Virus record (IMG/VR): IMGVR_UViG_3300045988_034039 | Span: 1 to 6,148 of that record | DNA from: a virus | Length of the DNA stretch: 6,148 nucleotides | Strand: one strand, 5' to 3' | Shown: positions 1 through 6,148 of the stretch, piece by piece | Layout of the letters: each line of letters begins with the position of its first letter | How positions within the stretch are numbered: position 1 is the stretch's first letter | Notes under the pieces: generated by a model | The model's input: the letters and a program-made list of their open reading frames with translations, nothing else | Databases searched by the model: none | Told to the model about the DNA's origin: nothing | Program-made: the position numbers and the translations under genes

Positions 1-55
1 TGCTTCTTCCAGGCGTTGTTTTTGATTCTTCGCTGAGTTGTATTCTGCCGTCATT
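1..55. repeat. Terminal direct overlap: nt 1-55 are identical to nt 6094-6148. This is the signature of a circular genome linearised with redundancy.
   Basis: By direct comparison both copies read tgcttcttccaggcgttgtttttgattcttcgctgagttgtattctgccgtcatt. The overlap lies inside one continuous reading frame (VP2). Confidence 0.95.
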
Positions 56-294
56 CCGAAGTATTCGTTTTGTCGCTGTTGATTTCTCTGCGCCATCTCT
101 TCATTGAGCTTCGCCTGGTAGTCCATGTTTTCTAGCTCATATCCGTGTTGTTTTTCCATCAGTTTTTTTTGGTCGTGATAATCTATTCCTCCTCCGCCTC
201 CGAATAGTCCACTTACAAAACTTCCTACTCCGCTTGCTAATCCTCCTGTAGCGGCATCTCCAATCATTCCTAATGCATTCTTAATAAATCCCAT
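1..294 (-). CDS. VP2: VP2 (DNA pilot / minor capsid protein), N-terminal 98 codons. The gene continues across the circular junction into 5272-6093, giving about 371 aa in total.
   Basis: ATG at 294-292, with an in-frame upstream stop at 309-307. My translation is MGFIKNALGMIGDAATGGLASGVGSFVSGLFGGGGGIDYHDQKKLMEKQHGYELENMDYQAKLNEEMAQRNQQRQNEYFGMTAEYNSAKNQKQRLEEA. Its last 18 residues equal the start of the 5272-6147 ORF in the track. The N-terminus is Gly-rich, as is typical of microvirus pilot proteins. Confidence 0.85.
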   Translation of the reverse strand, partial: MGFIKNALGMIGDAATGGLASGVGSFVSGLFGGGGGIDYHDQKKLMEKQHGYELENMDYQAKLNEEMAQRNQQRQNEYFGMTAEYNSAKNQKQRLEEA

Positions 295-503
295 AATAAT
301 AAGTTTTTACATTGATTTCGCTCTTTTTAAAAGAGCTCCACATTATAACTAGATAATATATGCTACGTGCGTACCACCCTCTTTAAAGAGGATTTCGCGG
401 TAAACTTATTGGACAATCTATGCCGTGCGTCCCCGCGAAATCTTTGGTCTTAATGGTCGTTCACTTCATACGTATGAACTTCGTTCACTAAAGTGGTAAC
501 ATG
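295..503. promoter_or_regulatory. Non-coding region dense in repeats and palindromes, between the 112-aa ORF and VP2. It is a candidate replication origin or regulatory region.
   Basis: No ORF on the coding strand. Palindromes lie at 320-336, 378-391 and 465-478. A 10-bp stem pairs 391-400 with 433-442. Direct repeats lie at 355-375/415-432 and 457-465/481-489. Confidence 0.5.
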
Positions 504-842
504 CTAATTAAGTTCGTTCTTCGACTCAATTGCACCGTTGGCTACGGCTTTTTTCGCTTCTTCGTCGATACTCTTCTTAGCTTCGCGCATACCTCCTAGT
601 TCTGATATCCTACCTCTTGTTCGGTTAACTTTCTCCATTGCATCTAAGGCAATGTCCCACTTGTCTGTACGGATGTCGTATGCTGCTATTACTCCGTCTT
701 TTCTTGGTGTATAGATTAATGGCGCGCTGTCTCCGATAGGTTCGTTGTTTTGCGTCATTCTGTCAATTTTTAATTCGAGCCTTTCACCCTCTACTAGCGC
801 TGTTCCTAATTTGCTTCTGTAATTAATTCCTACTTTTTTCAT
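504..842 (-). CDS. Hypothetical 112-aa protein directly downstream of the capsid gene. It may be a scaffolding or assembly protein, judged by position only.
   Basis: ATG at 842-840, 11 nt after the VP1 stop codon, and TAG stop at 506-504. It is on the same strand as all the other genes. The sequence looks like a normal globular protein with a charged C-terminal tail. I do not securely recognise a family. Confidence 0.6.
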   Translation of the reverse strand: MKKVGINYRSKLGTALVEGERLELKIDRMTQNNEPIGDSAPLIYTPRKDGVIAAYDIRTDKWDIALDAMEKVNRTRGRISELGGMREAKKSIDEEAKKAVANGAIESKNELN

Positions 843-853
843 GTTATAAAATA

Positions 854-2854
854 TTAAAGTGTTGGCATTACTTTGGCACTCATCACGATTCGTGCTTCGA
901 TATCAAATCCGATTTGAACCCAAAAGTTCATTGATTGTAAGTCCGTATCTGCGAATACGTAGTTATACGCTTGCGGGTCAATGTATGTTGAGTTGTTCAG
1001 CTTCGGTGTATTTCCTTCCCATTCTGTTTGATAGATTCTGTTTAACACCATAAATGACTCTGACTCTCCTACAGCGAAGTTTCCGTATGTCTTGTTATAA
1101 CTAGTCATGTAATCAATCCATGCTGGCTGTTTACCTACGCTATACTCTTGTAACACTCCATTACTGTACACAATCTGTTCTGCGTCCATTTTCCATGTAA
1201 GCAAATCTTGAAACCCGATTTGATCAAGTTGTGGTTTGTGAATTTGGTCGAGATTGTCTAACATAATGTCAAAATCATTCCCTTGTGAATAGTCAACTCT
1301 TGGCGTGATACTGCATATACCAATTAGGTAACACGGCTCTGTAACTTTTACAGTGATGTCTCCACCTTTCTTCCCTGTGTTAATTCCTCGTCCTGCTAGT
1401 GTTCCTAGTGGTTCATCCTCGGCTGCACTATTACTTACAACTTCCTGGAATTGAATCTCGCTAGACATACCCCCTTGATATTCGGGAATTTCGCTTCTAC
1501 TTACGTAGTCGGTTGTATATACTGTTTCAATCCAATCATTATAAGTACCCCCACTGATTGCGATTCGGTTGAGCATATTGTATACTTTTTTCGCTAAGAT
1601 TAGTGTATCTAATTCCAGCTTTCCGTCTGATACGTCCACTGCTGTAATTGCGTTGATTCCGTTTTCCCCGTCAATCCATTCTGTATTAATCCAATTGTTA
1701 AATATGTCGGACTGGTAAGTCTTAATCGCTAGTCCTACTTGTGGATATGCGCTGTAAAACTCTCTTCCTAAATTGATTAAGTCTTTTAAGTACTTTTGCG
1801 TCAGGTTTCCTTTGCCTTTCTCATATTGAATTAGTCCCTCTTGGTTTCCTAACGACAGTATTTCCTCTCTAGTTTTGTCGATTTGTTCAAGTTCGTACTT
1901 ATTCAACGTGATACTTCCTGATGTTTTGACACCTGTTAATCTAATATTCCTATATTCGGGTTTGTCATGCCAATTAACTGGGATACTCCATACCTTGTTT
2001 GTATATGACATCGCTGCATTCTTTGCCATTTGCTTTGCTGTAATCTCGAATGTCCCTATTACTGTAGTTGAGTCTGACATATATTCACCTACTAGTATTA
2101 ACTGATTAATATCTCCGGTGCTTGGGAATATTGTGTCTGCTATTTCGATTATATACCTTACGAGCCCGTTTTCTGCGTAGTATAGGTTCATGAAACTACT
2201 GTCCACTAATTCCCACTCTTCACTTGTTGCCAGTTTTGCCATCACCCTGATTGGCGATTTAGTTGTATTTGGTTTTTGAACTTCTGTTATATCCCCTACT
2301 CCAATTGCGTAGAATTCTTCTTCTTGTTTATTTGCATAGTAGTTTTTAAAGATGTCATAATATGCGATCGCGGGAATGGCATTAAATTTATGCACAAAAT
2401 CTAGCGAATCTGAGAGTTCTCGACCCTTGTTTCTAAACCCTAGATAAGCTAATAGGCTACTGCTGCTCCATGGAGTTTTAGAACTATCTTTCCCTAATGT
2501 TATGGCAAACTTCGGAAATTTCACCTTAGCCATATCAAGTCCTACGTTTAACGCGTTATTGTGAAGGAGTGCATTGTATAGTCTGATAGGCACGGTAAAG
2601 ATATCCATCTGAAACTTATAACTCCCGAATAGAGGCCCTACGGTAGGATGTGTTAGAATGTGACTGTTTGCTTTAATCTTGTATGTTGTACCTGGTGTTG
2701 CTAAGATTTTCATGCAAGGCACCAGTGTCCCTGGCGCTTGCGTGTTTCTCCAGATGTATGAGAGATTGTGTGTGCTTCTCTCATAGTCATGCATAGCGAC
2801 TTTCATCTTATTGTTATCGCCCAGCGTGTTTTTCCCGATAGTTTTTTTAACCAT
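854..2854 (-). CDS. VP1: Major capsid protein VP1 (Microviridae F-protein family), 666 aa.
   Basis: It is the longest ORF. The N-terminal region (...HDYERSTHNLSYIWRNTQAPGTLVPCMKILATPGTTYKI...) matches the conserved pattern at the start of microvirus capsid proteins: S-H-x-L-S, then G-x-L-x-P, then P-G-(D/T). Its size fits the large-capsid (Alpavirinae-like) lineages. Confidence 0.93.
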   Translation of the reverse strand: MVKKTIGKNTLGDNNKMKVAMHDYERSTHNLSYIWRNTQAPGTLVPCMKILATPGTTYKIKANSHILTHPTVGPLFGSYKFQMDIFTVPIRLYNALLHNNALNVGLDMAKVKFPKFAITLGKDSSKTPWSSSSLLAYLGFRNKGRELSDSLDFVHKFNAIPAIAYYDIFKNYYANKQEEEFYAIGVGDITEVQKPNTTKSPIRVMAKLATSEEWELVDSSFMNLYYAENGLVRYIIEIADTIFPSTGDINQLILVGEYMSDSTTVIGTFEITAKQMAKNAAMSYTNKVWSIPVNWHDKPEYRNIRLTGVKTSGSITLNKYELEQIDKTREEILSLGNQEGLIQYEKGKGNLTQKYLKDLINLGREFYSAYPQVGLAIKTYQSDIFNNWINTEWIDGENGINAITAVDVSDGKLELDTLILAKKVYNMLNRIAISGGTYNDWIETVYTTDYVSRSEIPEYQGGMSSEIQFQEVVSNSAAEDEPLGTLAGRGINTGKKGGDITVKVTEPCYLIGICSITPRVDYSQGNDFDIMLDNLDQIHKPQLDQIGFQDLLTWKMDAEQIVYSNGVLQEYSVGKQPAWIDYMTSYNKTYGNFAVGESESFMVLNRIYQTEWEGNTPKLNNSTYIDPQAYNYVFADTDLQSMNFWVQIGFDIEARIVMSAKVMPTL

Positions 2855-2862
2855 AGTCTTAC

Positions 2863-3099
2863 TTATTTATTATTTAACATTTCGTTTACTTTTTTTTCTG
2901 CGATATGTTCGCTTAGTTGTCCTACAATGGTCACTAACATGTCCCAATCTATCATGTTTGTAATGTAGTCTTCTGCATTTTCTTTTGTTTTGAATTCCAC
3001 TTTTGATGCGCGATATTTTCCGCACACAATTACGAATTTTTCCTCTTCGTTTACTTTTGTTTTTTCGATTCTGAATAGGTTCATTCCGTTTCTTTCCAT
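2863..3099 (-). CDS. Hypothetical 78-aa protein.
   Basis: ATG at 3099-3097 and TAA stop at 2865-2863. It lies 5 nt after the preceding ORF and 8 nt before the VP1 start. Residue composition looks like a real protein. No family recognised. Confidence 0.55.
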   Translation of the reverse strand: MERNGMNLFRIEKTKVNEEEKFVIVCGKYRASKVEFKTKENAEDYITNMIDWDMLVTIVGQLSEHIAEKKVNEMLNNK

Positions 3100-3104
3100 A
3101 ATTT

Positions 3105-3299
3105 TTACTTATTAAAATAGTTGTTAAATTTTGTGCTATCCACACTAGTACTGTTTTCTTGTCTTTGTTCAAAAGTTCCGTTATTATTTTTCGCGATGCT
3201 CATACTCATCGTACACGCCTGTAAAAACAGGATGCTTAGTACTGTGGTGATAAATGTAACCACCGCTGTAATTAATTTTTCTTTCTGTTCTTTAGTCAT
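3105..3299 (-). CDS. Small 64-aa membrane protein or putative lipoprotein.
   Basis: MTKEQKEK (charged n-region), then LITAVVTFITTVLSILFL (hydrophobic core), then a lipobox-like L-Q-A-C with Cys29 encoded at 3215-3213, then a polar Asn/Ser/Thr-rich tail. The start overlaps the upstream stop by 8 nt (ATGACTAA). Confidence 0.55.
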   Translation of the reverse strand: MTKEQKEKLITAVVTFITTVLSILFLQACTMSMSIAKNNNGTFEQRQENSTSVDSTKFNNYFNK

Positions 3300-3483
3300 A
3301 AAAGTAAGTATTTATGTTAATAATTTTGTATTTCTTTTTGTTAATTATTTTTTTGATTGCTGCCATACATTCCCATCTTATTTCAGACTCTAATTCTCTC
3401 TGTGAGACAATTACCTCTGCTTCTATTGATTTGACAACTCCCGTTTCCTTGTCGGCTATCACCGCTATTGTTTTATTCCTCAT
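3292..3483 (-). CDS. Hypothetical 63-aa protein.
   Basis: ATG at 3483-3481, 4 nt after the upstream TGA stop. TAA stop at 3294-3292, overlapping the next start. No family recognised. Confidence 0.5.
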   Translation of the reverse strand: MRNKTIAVIADKETGVVKSIEAEVIVSQRELESEIRWECMAAIKKIINKKKYKIININTYFYD

Positions 3484-3487
3484 ATTA

Positions 3488-3706
3488 TCATTCGGGTTCG
3501 TGGATTAAATAGATATATTGTTTTTCGTTTGAAGAGCCTGGTTTTATAATTAGCGTGTAATCATATAGTTTTGTTTTCCATCCTCTTTTCTTGTACTCTT
3601 CTGCAATTGTTTTTAAACTTTTTTTGCAGTCTCTAATTCTTCCTTCGTAGACTGATTGAGCTTTATCCCAGTTGTCTATTCTTAATACGCTATAAATCTT
3701 GTTCAT
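3488..3706 (-). CDS. Hypothetical 72-aa protein.
   Basis: ATG at 3706-3704, separated by 1 nt from the upstream TAA stop (TAATATG), and TGA stop at 3490-3488. No family recognised. Confidence 0.5.
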   Translation of the reverse strand: MNKIYSVLRIDNWDKAQSVYEGRIRDCKKSLKTIAEEYKKRGWKTKLYDYTLIIKPGSSNEKQYIYLIHEPE

Positions 3707-3707
3707 A

Positions 3708-3920
3708 TTATTTAATTATATTGATTTCACAATGTCTGTACCAATAATACCCGAACAGTGTTTCTAATATCTCGTACTGTTCGCAGCTTAGATTTGGGCT
3801 TAATGCAAGTAAGTTGAACCTTTTCTTTAATAAATCCTCATCTTCTTTTTTTAAATTCACCTTGAGTATTAACTTGTAATCTTTGTTTTCTTTGTTTTCT
3901 ATTACTATTTCTTTTTCCAT
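3708..3920 (-). CDS. Hypothetical 70-aa protein, first gene of the small-ORF cassette.
   Basis: ATG at 3920-3918, preceded by an A-rich leader and a promoter-like motif. TAA stop at 3710-3708. No family recognised. Confidence 0.5.
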   Translation of the reverse strand: MEKEIVIENKENKDYKLILKVNLKKEDEDLLKKRFNLLALSPNLSCEQYEILETLFGYYWYRHCEINIIK

Positions 3921-3969
3921 AATTGTAAATTTTTTGTTTTTTAATGGTGTTTATCTCTTTCTCACACCA

Positions 3970-4001
3970 CAAAGATAATACAAAAATATAAGCCAACCAA
4001 A
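3970..4001 (-). promoter_or_regulatory. Candidate Bacteroidota-type promoter: -33 TTTG, a 20-nt spacer, then -7 TATCTTTG.
   Basis: On the minus strand TTTG lies at 4001-3998 and TATCTTTG at 3977-3970. This fits the Bacteroides consensus TTTG-N19-21-TAnnTTTG. A second -7-like box, TATTTTTG, lies at 3988-3981. The site is in a ~25% GC gap about 50 nt upstream of the ATG at 3920. Confidence 0.35.
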
Positions 4002-4060
4002 TAAATGACTGACTTTAACACTTCTTTAACATTTCTCCATCAGCATTGCTAATAAAAAAT

Positions 4061-4265
4061 GAGAGAAGGGGTCGGTTTGGTTCTTTGCCGAGACAAAGAA
4101 CAGCCTGATACTATTACACGTCTCGACCGGGTCGAGCGTGCCCGAGTGACGAGTTGGGAGAACGAGGAACGGCCGAACGAAGTGAGGAGAGTAATGAGTT
4201 GCGAAGCAACACCTTCATGTCTGTTGAGTACAGCGAGCATCTCGAGTATGGCGAGCCTTCGTTCG
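4061..4265. other. GC-rich multi-hairpin non-coding element immediately 3' of the VP4 stop codon. Its function is unknown; it could be a structured ssDNA origin or a structured RNA.
   Basis: My hand count gives 111 G+C in 205 nt (54%), against 40 in 160 (25%) for 3901-4060 and about 35% in a nearby coding sample. At least seven stems are present; coordinates are in the findings. The only ORFs here are a TTG-initiated one and antisense ones. Confidence 0.6.
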
Positions 4266-5270
4266 TCAGAACGGACAACACCCAATTTCGTAGTTGTTTA
4301 TTCTCTCTGCTGTTTGTCTGTCGATATATTCATTCATATTCCTTCGTTTTCTGTACATACTTCGCTGTTTTTCCAGTCTTCGCCAATATTGTTTCTCCTT
4401 CCATAGAGCTATATTGTCTCCGTGTATCTGTTTTGCTTGTTCTCTGTAGTAGCTTAGGAGGTTCTTGTATTCATCTGAATCTATCTTGCACTTTTCCCCC
4501 ATCACCCATGTATCACCCTTGTCTAATTTCTGTAGCCATAGTAATTCTTTTTCTTCTTCACTATAAATTTTGTCTCGGTAATATCTTGGCATCATTGCTC
4601 TAGTACCATTCTTAAAAACGTAGTATTCTCTTGTGTTTTTTCCATTGTATCTATTGAATTTCCAGTCTCCGCGCTCGAAGTATTGTTTCCCCATTCCTGC
4701 ACTTGTTAACACTTTCCCTGTAAATTCTCTATTGTTTAAGTCATCCTTTAGCATGTACTTACTGATGTAATTAATTGTTTTTTCGTTTACAAAATTACCG
4801 ATGAATACATACCCATATTTCCATTTTTCAATTACCAGTTCCGCTGCTTGGTTTCCGAAGAATATCCCATGTAAATGTATTCTTCCTCTATCTTCTCCTA
4901 GCTCGGTTACGCACCAGTGTTTTAGTGACTTCCCTGTTTTTTTTCTGCATCGCTCTAGAAACTTTCTCAGTGCTAGTGTTGCTATATTGTTTTCGTTTCC
5001 TTTAACTGATTTTACTTCTAGTTCGTTTTTCAACAATTCTAAATTCTCATCGTCAATTGTTAATGTTACGAAATAGCTCTTGTTGTGTCTGATTTCTTCT
5101 GCTAGTCTGATTCTCCATTCTCTGGCTTTCTTTTTTCTACACTCGTAGCACTTCCCGCATGCTACCGGTACATAATTCAGTCTTGCATCATGTGGAGAGG
5201 GTTTGTAGTACCCTCTCTTCTTAGATGTCCTGTACTTAGGATTTGGTATTAATCTTGGATATAAACACAT
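4266..5270 (-). CDS. VP4: Replication initiation protein VP4 (HUH rolling-circle endonuclease, phiX174 gpA-like), 334 aa.
   Basis: Motif 1 is FVTLT (nt 5072-5058). Motif 2 (HUH) is RIHLHGIFF, with H-L-H at 4877-4869. Motif 3 is NYISKYMLKD, with two Tyr spaced Y-x3-Y at 4769-4755. The N-terminus MCLYPRLIPNPKY and a CGKCYEC cysteine cluster are typical of gut microvirus VP4. The ATG lies 1 nt after the VP2 stop. Confidence 0.92.
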   Translation of the reverse strand: MCLYPRLIPNPKYRTSKKRGYYKPSPHDARLNYVPVACGKCYECRKKKAREWRIRLAEEIRHNKSYFVTLTIDDENLELLKNELEVKSVKGNENNIATLALRKFLERCRKKTGKSLKHWCVTELGEDRGRIHLHGIFFGNQAAELVIEKWKYGYVFIGNFVNEKTINYISKYMLKDDLNNREFTGKVLTSAGMGKQYFERGDWKFNRYNGKNTREYYVFKNGTRAMMPRYYRDKIYSEEEKELLWLQKLDKGDTWVMGEKCKIDSDEYKNLLSYYREQAKQIHGDNIALWKEKQYWRRLEKQRSMYRKRRNMNEYIDRQTAERINNYEIGCCPF

Positions 5271-5271
5271 A

Positions 5272-6148
5272 TTACTTAACCATTGCTGTTCCTACTATTT
5301 GACCAATTCTTTGTACGCTCTCTAGAGATCTTAGTATTATATCTGCTATAAGCTTTGTTTCTTCTAGATTTAATTTTTTCTCTGTAAATTTATTTTCCTT
5401 GTTCCACTGCTCTACTTGTGCTTCGATTTGTTTCCGGACATTTTCCCTCTGTCCTTCCCAGTTCTCGGCTTGTGCTGCCCATAGGTCTAACTGTCCTTGG
5501 ATAGTTTTTATGTTTTCGTTTGTGAACTTGGCATTGGCTGCCGCTTCCATTGCTTTCATTGTGTTTAGGTATATCTGAGAATTTATACTTTTCTGTAATG
5601 AATTTTTGATGATTGTTTTTTGGTCGTTGTCTAGGTTTACGCCTTCAATTTCAGAAACTAATCTATCGAACTCTTTAAATAGTATATGCTCTTGTACTTT
5701 GAGGTTTAATCTCTCTTGGTCTGTTTTTGCTGCTAGGTTTTCGCTTAATTCTTTAGCTGCTTTGAGTGATTCTTCATACGCCTTACCTACGTAGTACTGT
5801 TGTTTTTCTGAAGGTATTTTTGCAATAATCTCACCAACTTTTGTTTCGCTCTCCTTGATATCTTGTCTTGCCTTATCTGTGTCTACTCCCTTGGTTTTGT
5901 TTGCTTCTGCGTATGCCTTGGCTGCTTCTGCATTCATCAGATTCGTTTGTGCCTTGATTTGGCTTAATTGAAGTCCCATACCCACTGCTTGCGCTTGTGA
6001 CAGTCCGACTCCACTACCGCTTGCTCCACCTGTACTTCCTGTCCCTGCTCCGCCACTTCCTGCGCTTCCGTACATTAATGCAGGATTTAATCCTGCTTCT
6101 TCCAGGCGTTGTTTTTGATTCTTCGCTGAGTTGTATTCTGCCGTCATT
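5272..6148 (-). CDS. VP2: VP2 (DNA pilot / minor capsid protein), C-terminal part. The frame is open at the window end and continues from nt 294-1 through the circular junction.
   Basis: It contains the EEAGLNPALMYG motif characteristic of microvirus VP2, a Gly/Ser-rich stretch (GSAGSGGAGTGSTGGASGSG), and then a long heptad-like charged helical region. TAA stop at 5274-5272. Nt 6094-6148 duplicate nt 1-55. Confidence 0.85.
   Translation of the reverse strand, partial: MTAEYNSAKNQKQRLEEAGLNPALMYGSAGSGGAGTGSTGGASGSGVGLSQAQAVGMGLQLSQIKAQTNLMNAEAAKAYAEANKTKGVDTDKARQDIKESETKVGEIIAKIPSEKQQYYVGKAYEESLKAAKELSENLAAKTDQERLNLKVQEHILFKEFDRLVSEIEGVNLDNDQKTIIKNSLQKSINSQIYLNTMKAMEAAANAKFTNENIKTIQGQLDLWAAQAENWEGQRENVRKQIEAQVEQWNKENKFTEKKLNLEETKLIADIILRSLESVQRIGQIVGTAMVK
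6094..6148. repeat. Second copy of the 55-nt terminal overlap (identical to 1-55).
   Basis: Exact identity to nt 1-55 by inspection. Confidence 0.95.

Follow-up and report, generated by a model that had tools for sequence, protein, structure and literature searches.

We report here that a 6,148-nucleotide (nt) stretch of virus DNA (IMG/VR record IMGVR_UViG_3300045988_034039, positions 1 to 6,148; hereafter the window), a complete or near-complete gut microvirus genome of ~6.1 kb whose long open reading frames (ORFs) all lie on the minus strand, carries a real, strongly conserved, non-coding hairpin cluster that is typical of its phage family. The cluster, referred to as the element (Table 1), starts one base past the stop of the Rep/VP4 gene (4266) in gene order, and the next gene lies at 3920. 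It most likely acts as DNA, and not as a protein or a known RNA. In the best-supported reading of our analysis, the element would be a new, lineage-specific variant of a known signal type, one that is analogous, and not homologous, to a complementary-strand origin and that is read on the + strand of the window. We assign this reading a probability of about 0.45. The gene-sense strand is the minus strand throughout, and the + strand is the window as presented.

A conserved, non-coding hairpin cluster after VP4

Four sets of relatives were compared with the window: 11 genomes from IMG/VR, 10 genomes obtained through VP4 homologues with 63-81% identity, 8 metagenome contigs retrieved with a DNA pattern taken from module C (the variable, VP4-adjacent part of the element), and 68 more distant genomes with VP4 identities of 36-56%. 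Individual relatives are given below as L numbers. On the + strand, positions 4061-4265 have a guanine-plus-cytosine (GC) content of 0.54 and a purine content of 0.59, compared to a purine content of 0.38 for the whole + strand, confirming the GC-rich and purine-rich anomaly described in an earlier note on this DNA, which had also correctly read GGGTCG at 4069 and 4129 and three copies of GAACG. In a 200-nt profile, GC is 0.46-0.525 in the stretch, 0.245-0.30 just upstream and 0.30-0.44 elsewhere, and the genome as a whole has a GC of ~0.37. The earlier note had called the stretch compositionally foreign and considered it a possible recent insert, a view that the relatives do not support. The first 200 nt past VP4 have a GC of 0.43-0.55 in most of the 68 distant genomes, compared to 0.35-0.38 for the genome, and in ~25 of the 68 the genome-wide GC maximum begins ~100 nt or less from the VP4 stop. 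A GC-rich hairpin cluster occupies the same slot in most of these genomes, indicating that the "foreign" composition is a family trait of the control region. The clusters of the more distant clades differ in sequence and share only short motifs, and they are analogous in position.

The element is the most conserved stretch of the genome in comparison with the clade of 80% VP4 identity, with 0.88-0.97 identity compared to a genome mean of 0.73-0.74, while the third codon positions of VP4 in the same clade are just 58-60% identical. The stems and the tail carry substitutions less often than the loop of hairpin B and the linker that joins hairpin B to hairpin A. The 29 variable sites among 163 show no synonymous excess in any frame. 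A protein-coding gene was evaluated in six frames and rejected, as no conserved frame with a start codon and a synonymous excess is found; a conserved coding gene had been named in the earlier note as a refutation of its structured-element idea. That note had also named a non-coding RNA as an alternative. A covariance scan against Rfam gives no match in the region at E-values up to 10 and nothing in 10 relatives at E up to 0.1, and a tRNA/tmRNA scan with ARAGORN gives none, so that this alternative gains no support.

Among the stems that had been drawn by eye, three are retained by our analysis, namely H1 (hairpin A in this study), H2 (hairpin B) and H5. Hairpin A (arms 4080-4087 and 4094-4101; loop TCTCGG on the sense strand and CCGAGA on the + strand) is conserved with compensatory changes, and its arms read GTTCTTTG/CAAAGAAC in the window, GTTCTTTTG/CAAAAGAAC in L019, GTTCTTTCC/GGAAAGAAC in L021, GTTCTTTTTG/CAAAAAGAAC in L100 and GTTCTTTCTC/GAGAAAGAAC in L101. 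Its pairing is preserved through compensatory substitutions and paired insertions in five lineages, with further compensated pairs in L019, L021, L100 and L101, and the TCG core of the loop is retained. These variants were compared in a model-based alignment, in which the top pair covaries (GC 6, CG 2, UA 2); the MAFFT alignment was out of structural register. H2 (arms 4117-4127 and 4131-4140, with one bulge) and H5 (arms 4198-4202 and 4206-4210) are present in every fold and in the consensus structure. The stem of hairpin B is unchanged in 17 of the 18 carriers, its loop being either CCG or CCA, and in L018 the stem shows one compensatory pair, one wobble and two breaks. Both stems B and H5 are invariant, while the neighboring linkers and the B loop vary.

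The remaining stems fare less well. The long-range helix H4 is a perfect inverted repeat in the window, but it is not conserved: across 10 relatives, 65% of the cells pair, with zero compensatory changes, which is not above shuffles. The RNAalifold consensus is without H4, H3 and both short 4-base-pair (bp) stems. It includes hairpins A, B and H5 and also a 3-bp stem, for which one compensatory event is seen. The covariation that the earlier note had proposed to look for is seen in hairpin A, and not in H4 or in the other, invariant stems. The folding energies are no more than modestly better than those of shuffles. Compared to dinucleotide shuffles, the minus strand folds better as DNA (z -2.6, 0 of 200 shuffles as good), and the plus strand less clearly so (z -1.6, 19 of 200 shuffles as good), whereas the RNA folds are not significant on either strand (z -1.0 and -0.45). 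In a coarse-grid scan, windows over the element have the lowest raw single-stranded DNA (ssDNA) energies of the genome (-24.8 and -29.2 kcal/mol), and stronger ssDNA z-scores are found elsewhere, at 2701-3000 and 301-500, in the genome-wide scan. The strongest fold z-scores, -5.3 and -5.4, lie around the VP1 start (2701-3000), and those around 301-500 are -2.9 to -3.7.

The hairpins are accompanied by a 26-nt tail, the core of which, GACCCCTTC(T/A)CTCATTTTT, is unchanged in most carriers, from the clade of the window out to L100-L102; the tail of L002 and L026 is a third variant, CCCCCTCACTC. The tail pairs with upstream purine-rich partners in L019, L020 and L021, and with a downstream module in L009, L013, L015 and L100-L102, and no strong pairing partner for it was found in the window. 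This extra module, module D, follows the tail and its T-run in those relatives. It contains CGGCTACCGCCG, which is CGGCGGTAGCCG on the other strand, forming a 4-bp stem with a GNNA loop that is a GCGNNAGC motif, and its purine-rich stretch (GGGTCGG or GAGAGAGGGTCG) is the part that pairs with the tail. Read on the antisense strand, the module D stem precedes a T-run and looks terminator-like. Module C is more variable. Its VP4-proximal part turns into a perfect (GTTCTCGAG)3-5 array in L003, L004 (at 4807-4847), L008, L024, L027 and L030, and the copy number of GTTCTCGAG differs between near-identical genomes; a tandem-repeat finder detected no tandem array inside the element of the window, and the 9-nt array is confined to relatives. 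L009 is without module C, and L018 is without module C and the tail. At least two deletions are flanked by short direct repeats (GACG..GACG in L001 and L006, and GCACGCT..GCACGCT in L009), as replication slippage would produce.

Spread among relatives, strand-specific motifs and strand composition

An nhmmer profile of the element detects it in the clade of 63-67% VP4 identity, where it lies upstream of VP4 in the gap between VP2 and VP4, and searches of distant clades with this profile gave no homologue beyond relatives with at least 63% VP4 identity. L020 carries the whole element, including a module C homologue, upstream of VP4 (3993-4200, E = 3e-32), and the copies of hairpin A and tail in L019 (239-295), L021 (1664-1720) and L022 (4358-4411) stop ~25 nt short of the VP4 start codon. 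L100-L102, with a VP1 that is ~23% identical and a Rep that is barely alignable, also carry hairpin A, the tail and module D in almost unchanged form. In these three independent contigs (L100 at ~3100-3300, L101 at ~1250-2040 and L102 at ~3800-4000), they are part of a cassette that consists of a long hairpin, hairpin A, the tail, module D, a promoter-like core and small ORFs, one of them 39% identical. The cassette is inverted relative to VP1: VP1, Rep and a peptidase M15 gene are all on the other strand. Such an ambisense layout is reported to be almost unknown in Microviridae (Roux et al. 2012, PMC3394797). The near-identity of hairpin A and tail in the company of unrelated Rep proteins fits recognition by a shared host factor better than recognition by the phage's own Rep.

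Two motifs show a pronounced strand preference. AATA[GC]TA[TC]CAG has 35 copies on the sense strand and 0 on the antisense strand, and all copies but one are located after VP4, in clades whose VP4 identity ranges from 47 to 100%, and in most cases a GC hairpin lies just 5' of the copy. In the L033-L056 clade (for example, L035 at 5028 and 5162), two direct AATAGTAyCAG copies flank the GC cluster, and the first overlaps the VP4 stop. A small hairpin lies ~15-25 nt upstream of this first copy, inside the C-terminal coding region of VP4, and it appears to covary (CGCC-ATG-GGCG, CACC-TTG-GGTG and CGCTT-T-AAGCG). The second motif is GCTTCGC on the sense strand, corresponding to GCGAAGC on the + strand, the core of H5. 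It occurs in 46-50 copies compared to 4.9 expected (~9-fold) over 88-90 fetched family genomes. The VP4 stop was mapped in 87 genomes; of the 45 copies in these, 44 fall no more than 450 nt past it, and six or more different flanking contexts are seen. The sense strand carries GCGAAGC only as often as expected, and never within the post-VP4 region. The flanks of several clades permit only a 2-bp GC/GC stem (TCGCTTCGCTC), indicating that the heptamer is meaningful solely as a d(GCGAAGC) mini-hairpin. The CGGCGGTAGCCG mini-hairpin of module D is on the same strand as GCGAAGC. Mini-hairpins of the GCGNAGC/GCGNNAGC class are extraordinarily stable; the complementary-strand origins of G4, St-1 and alpha3 have them at the primase site, and ssiA of RSF1010 contains them as well (Hirao review, PMC13037366). 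The GCGAAGC of the window at 4201-4207(+) belongs to this class, which is common to G4- and phiX174-type origins.

We also compared the base composition of the two strands. At gene-sense four-fold sites of the window (504-6147, n = 497), the frequencies are A 0.58, T 0.16, G 0.18 and C 0.09, and 87 of 87 family genomes are A-rich at these sites (A 0.43-0.74; medians, A 0.62 and T 0.14). On known virion strands it is T that prevails at four-fold sites, with 0.63 in phiX174, 0.50 in G4, 0.50 in Chp2 and 0.65 in SpV4, and a double-stranded DNA Bacteroides phage has no such bias (A 0.29, T 0.34). The preference of ssDNA phages for NNT codons has been attributed to single-strand C-to-T pressure (Cardinale and Duffy 2011, PMC3278643). 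The VP1-sense strand of L100-L102, with their inverted cassette, is T-rich (T 0.38-0.53). The T-rich strand carries the GCGAAGC-type motifs in both arrangements as well as in phiX174 and G4, and in the window it is the + strand. This coupling ties the orientation of the element to strand identity, as expected of an origin. Polarization of substitutions at four-fold sites left just 7 G, 3 C and 7 T as usable non-A sites, which permits no inference on the deaminating strand.

The + strand of the window may thus be the virion strand. Hairpins A, B and H5 are conserved, and we infer which of their strands is encapsidated from the four-fold composition and the cassette orientation only. It is possible, though on balance doubtful, that the family packages the strand complementary to its mRNAs ("negative-sense") and that the GC- and purine-rich GCGAAGC/GNNA cluster would be a host-primed origin for the coding strand with a fixed orientation. 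This orientation may then define, or depend on, the packaged strand. If so, the packaging of the non-coding strand would overturn the textbook assumption for Microviridae and would affect how ssDNA viromes are prepared and interpreted, and the composition at four-fold sites would offer a simple test for the packaged strand.

Proposed origin reading and its alternatives

In the proposed mechanism, the element would be this clade's version of the family-wide GC-rich hairpin cluster, which usually lies between the Rep gene and the main promoter, and it would be a cis-acting signal on single-stranded phage DNA. On the + strand, hairpins A and B, the mini-hairpin H5, the purine-rich tail and the A6 run would together mark the start of second-strand synthesis, and the candidate starter would be a host primase, primosome factor or RNA polymerase. 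The earlier note had raised complementary-strand priming from the hairpins, and the conservation, the covariation of H1, GCGAAGC in H5 and the orientation on the T-rich strand speak for it, while part of the fold on which it was drawn (H3, H4 and the short stems) is not conserved. The complementary-strand origins of f1, phiX174 and sso (single-strand origin) plasmids are dispensable, and the repeated loss of the element in relatives fits this.

Several observations weigh against the origin reading. L001 and L006 are without module C and hairpin B, L005 is without all modules, and L021 and L022 carry hairpin A and the tail alone, upstream of VP4; with modules missing in various relatives, none is indispensable. 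The fold z-scores are modest, and generic parameters favor the gene-sense strand (-2.6 compared to -1.6 for the + strand). The covariation term of RNAalifold is +0.35, which means none, and because the stems other than hairpin A are invariant, covariation cannot support them. The coupling between orientation and the T-rich strand comes from two independent arrangements and the classical phages. Searches of G4 and phiX174 with blastn-short gave chance matches of 9-14 nt only and no homology, and TAGCG[TA], covering the CS-6 sequence of ssoA (TAGCGT), is absent from both strands of 4054-4265. Moreover, we infer the action on ssDNA, the + strand as the acting strand, the priming and the function as a whole.

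A viral-strand (rolling-circle) origin or another Rep-dependent site is an unlikely alternative and, with the RNA-level one below, a main rival; in it, Rep would bind the GC hairpin and nick at or near AATAGTATCAG or the tail, with the orientation setting the displaced and packaged strand. The strictly strand-specific AATA[GC]TA[TC]CAG (35 to 0) beside a GC hairpin across clades, its paired copies around the GC cluster of one clade, and the T-rich-strand coupling, which fits a plus-strand origin equally well, speak for it, and the relocation relative to VP4 and the inversion in L100-L102 are breakpoints expected at a nick site. Origins normally co-vary with Rep, however, and hairpin A and tail stay near-identical with almost unrelated Reps; positions within the motif vary among near-identical genomes (TAATAGTA, TAACAGCA, TAGTAGTA and TAACAACA), L005 has neither the motif nor any module, and no similarity to the 30-nt origin of phiX174 is found. 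We regard as quite improbable that the element works at the RNA level, as a terminator, insulator or stabilizer of the 3' untranslated region (possibly with a C-rich tract that loads Rho) that ends the VP2-VP4 unit and blocks transcription running round the circle into the main promoter. Its place between the last gene and the promoter-like core would suit such a role, and so would a sense strand that is rich in C and poor in G, with a conserved T6 at its end. Pairing of an upstream GAGAGAAGG with CCTTCTCTC just ahead of the T-run gives a terminator-like enclosure of hairpin A in L019 and L021, and canonical terminators occupy the same slot in L019, L020 and L057. In the window, however, no hairpin abuts the T-run, ~20 unpaired nt precede the T6 at 4054-4059, and a terminator scan found none inside the element and only a weak site at 4015-3990(-), which overlaps the promoter-like core. 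The RNA folds are no better than shuffles, GCTTCGC with a 2-bp stem is implausible as an RNA hairpin, the L100-L102 cassette is inverted relative to the main genes, and terminators or rut sites need no loops and single-stranded tails that are 90-100% conserved at 23% VP1 identity.

Variability among relatives could suggest a tolerated hairpin-prone spacer or a selfish recombination cassette that is functionless for the phage and conserved through frequent exchange. The element is present or absent among 93-98% identical genomes, slippage has deleted parts of it at least four times independently, its 9-nt repeat array varies, and it has been relocated and inverted between lineages. Exchange alone, however, fails to explain conservation far above synonymous sites, both in the 80% clade and in L100-L102, where the neighboring ORF is 39% identical, nor does it account for the lower substitution rate in stems and tail or for a heptamer enrichment that is strand- and position-specific across deep clades, so that we consider this explanation very unlikely. 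Foreign DNA, whether a recent insert, an attP/Xer (dif-like) module or an assembly chimera, is largely refuted. The GC content and strand skew sharply unlike the rest of the genome had suggested it, and related Bacteroidetes microvirus proviruses are flanked by dif-like sites (PMC3091885). The att site of those proviruses, however, lies upstream of Rep and not after it; the 28-nt dif consensus has 0 matches with up to 3 mismatches anywhere in the window, and a relaxed dif core pattern gives chance-level matches, all outside the region, which leaves the earlier note's attP/Xer suggestion without a site. In 185,579 species genomes, neither the module C pattern nor a VP4 relative was found, and hence no host copy or provirus, and INPHARED phages gave no match by megablast or blastn. 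Within metagenome and viral collections, the element turned up in ~6 kb microvirus contigs alone, always in the non-coding control region, and more than 25 independent assemblies have it at the same place, which excludes the chimeric assembly that the note had allowed for, as well as a host-derived insert; the GC-rich clusters in the same slot of distant relatives argue in the same direction. A small protein, encoded by the 78-amino-acid (aa) sense ORF 4049-4285(-) or by an antisense micro-ORF from the ATG at 4059(+), is hardly credible. Most carriers have one open sense frame with a common stop, the 9-nt unit preserves the frame, and the antisense ATG is conserved. Against this, the open sense frame is at +1, +2 or 0 relative to VP4 depending on the genome, it is without a start codon in the repeat variants and is interrupted by TAG in L010 and L025, and large deletions remove most of it in close relatives. 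The 78-aa ORF has 11 synonymous and 18 non-synonymous changes, no frame is under purifying selection, and the antisense ORF is cut by stops to 21-31 aa in most relatives.

Genome context and comparison with known systems

The coordinates of the element and of its neighbors are collected in Table 1. The stretch first described, 4061-4265, ends ~60 nt short of a conserved intergenic core that adjoins the element. Within this core, a tandem-repeat finder reports two TGTTAAAG direct repeats at 4013-4036, and the sense strand has a promoter-like pair, TTTG at 3998-4001 and TAtcTTTG at 3970-3977, with 20 nt between them, and a GGTG..CACC leader hairpin. Going by the Bacteroides consensus, the pair may be a promoter of the Bacteroidota type, and the host is presumably a member of the Bacteroidales. 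The core is kept down to the 63% VP4 clade, and distant clades have a variant form with GTTAAA repeats. Several further small ORFs are present in the window.

Table 1. Features of the element and neighboring genes (window coordinates)
Feature	Position	Strand	Remarks
Whole non-coding element	4054-4265		gene-sense order: module C, hairpin B, AATAGTATCAG, hairpin A, invariant tail with T6/A6 run
Invariant tail, 26 nt	4054-4079		CCAAACCGACCCCTTCTCTCATTTTTT on sense strand, AAAAAATGAGAGAAGGGGTCGGTTTGG on + strand
Hairpin A (H1 of the earlier note)	4080-4101		GTTCTTTG/CAAAGAAC, 6-nt loop; perfect inverted repeat
Strand-specific motif AATAGTATCAG	4105-4115	-	between hairpins B and A
Hairpin B (H2 of the earlier note)	4117-4140		10-11 bp GC-rich stem, one bulge, 3-nt loop
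Module C, variable, ~125 nt	4141-4265		contains H5; VP4-proximal end ~4221-4256 with 9-nt periodicity
H4 5' arm	4174-4182		partner 4257-4265; perfect inverted repeat in window, unconserved
H5	4198-4210	+	GTTGC-GAA-GCAAC on + strand, GTTGC-TTC-GCAAC gene-sense; GCGAAGC heptamer at 4201-4207
Conserved intergenic core, adjoining the element	3946-4036	-	TGTTAAAG repeats, promoter-like pair, leader hairpin
Capsid protein VP1, 666 aa	854-2854	-	
Rep/VP4 gene, 334 aa, PF23343	4266-5270	-	directly upstream of the element in gene order
Pilot-like protein, 291 aa		-	reaches the window end

Some features elsewhere in the genome are recorded here. A CCCTCTTTAAAGAGG hairpin at 373-409 gives weak, sub-threshold Rfam matches (the 3' end of sroH, and mir-981), and 6084-6119(-), inside the pilot-protein gene, matches the CRISPR-DR32 model with 29.7 bits compared to a gathering threshold of 48 (E = 0.028), probably by chance. 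In the family genomes, the other GC maximum falls on the Gly/Ala-rich N-terminus of the pilot protein. VP1 is hypervariable at ~1900-2350, with 0.38-0.55 identity to relatives that are at 0.75-0.9 elsewhere.

Microviruses are among the most abundant phages of the human gut, and to our knowledge the replication signals of microviruses are known only for the coliphages phiX174 and G4. The element is a concrete, testable candidate for the single-strand replication signal of a large uncultured family. Its hairpins are defined, its 26-nt tail is invariant and its heptamer is strand-specific, and natural deletion variants could serve as controls. The conserved tail and hairpin A could also mark phages that share a host.

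Among known systems, the intrinsic terminators of phiX174 in the J-F, F-G, G-H and H-A regions likewise combine hairpins with a T-run at the end of a transcription unit, but the T-run of the window has no stem directly beside it, and the sequence is under far tighter constraint than a terminator would require. The primosome assembly site of phiX174 (PriA/n' site) is also hairpin-forming and non-coding, and GCGAAGC is found on the virion (+) strand of phiX174 at 2358, in the F-G intergenic region; unlike the element, this region is not GC-rich (0.43 compared to 0.45 for the genome), and it has no homology to the element. The phiX174 site is dispensable for viability. The sso of rolling-circle plasmids (ssoA, ssoU, ssoT and ssoW) are non-coding, highly structured, orientation-dependent and host-specific sequences of 150-300 nt, and they are dispensable yet highly conserved cassettes among replicons with unrelated Reps. 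The deletion variants of the element, its hairpin A and tail beside a barely alignable Rep in L100-L102, and an orientation that tracks the T-rich strand are sso-like, whereas the element belongs to a phage, has no sequence relationship to sso and lacks CS-6.

A further close parallel is the primase (DnaG) origin of G4 (and of St-1 and alpha3) in the F-G region, which is likewise a non-coding hairpin cluster in microvirus intergenic DNA. Both are GC-rich islands (0.58 in the G4 intergenic region compared to 0.46 for its genome; 0.54 compared to ~0.37 here), both hold more purine than the remainder of their strand, and both contain a mini-hairpin of the GCGNAGC/GCGNNAGC class, which is GCGAAAGC at 3977 in G4, inside the annotated primer RNA (3970-3997) of the complementary-strand origin, and GCGAAGC in H5 here. 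Unlike in G4, the host is not Escherichia, and the element lies after Rep and before the promoter, and not between the capsid and spike genes. Because the mini-hairpin is on the strand complementary to the genes, the analogy with G4 requires that this strand be the virion strand, and given the absence of homology to G4 and phiX174, the element would be an analogue at most, and not a member of their family by descent. Complementary-strand origins differ between related microviruses, so that the lineage-specific presence of such an element would be normal.

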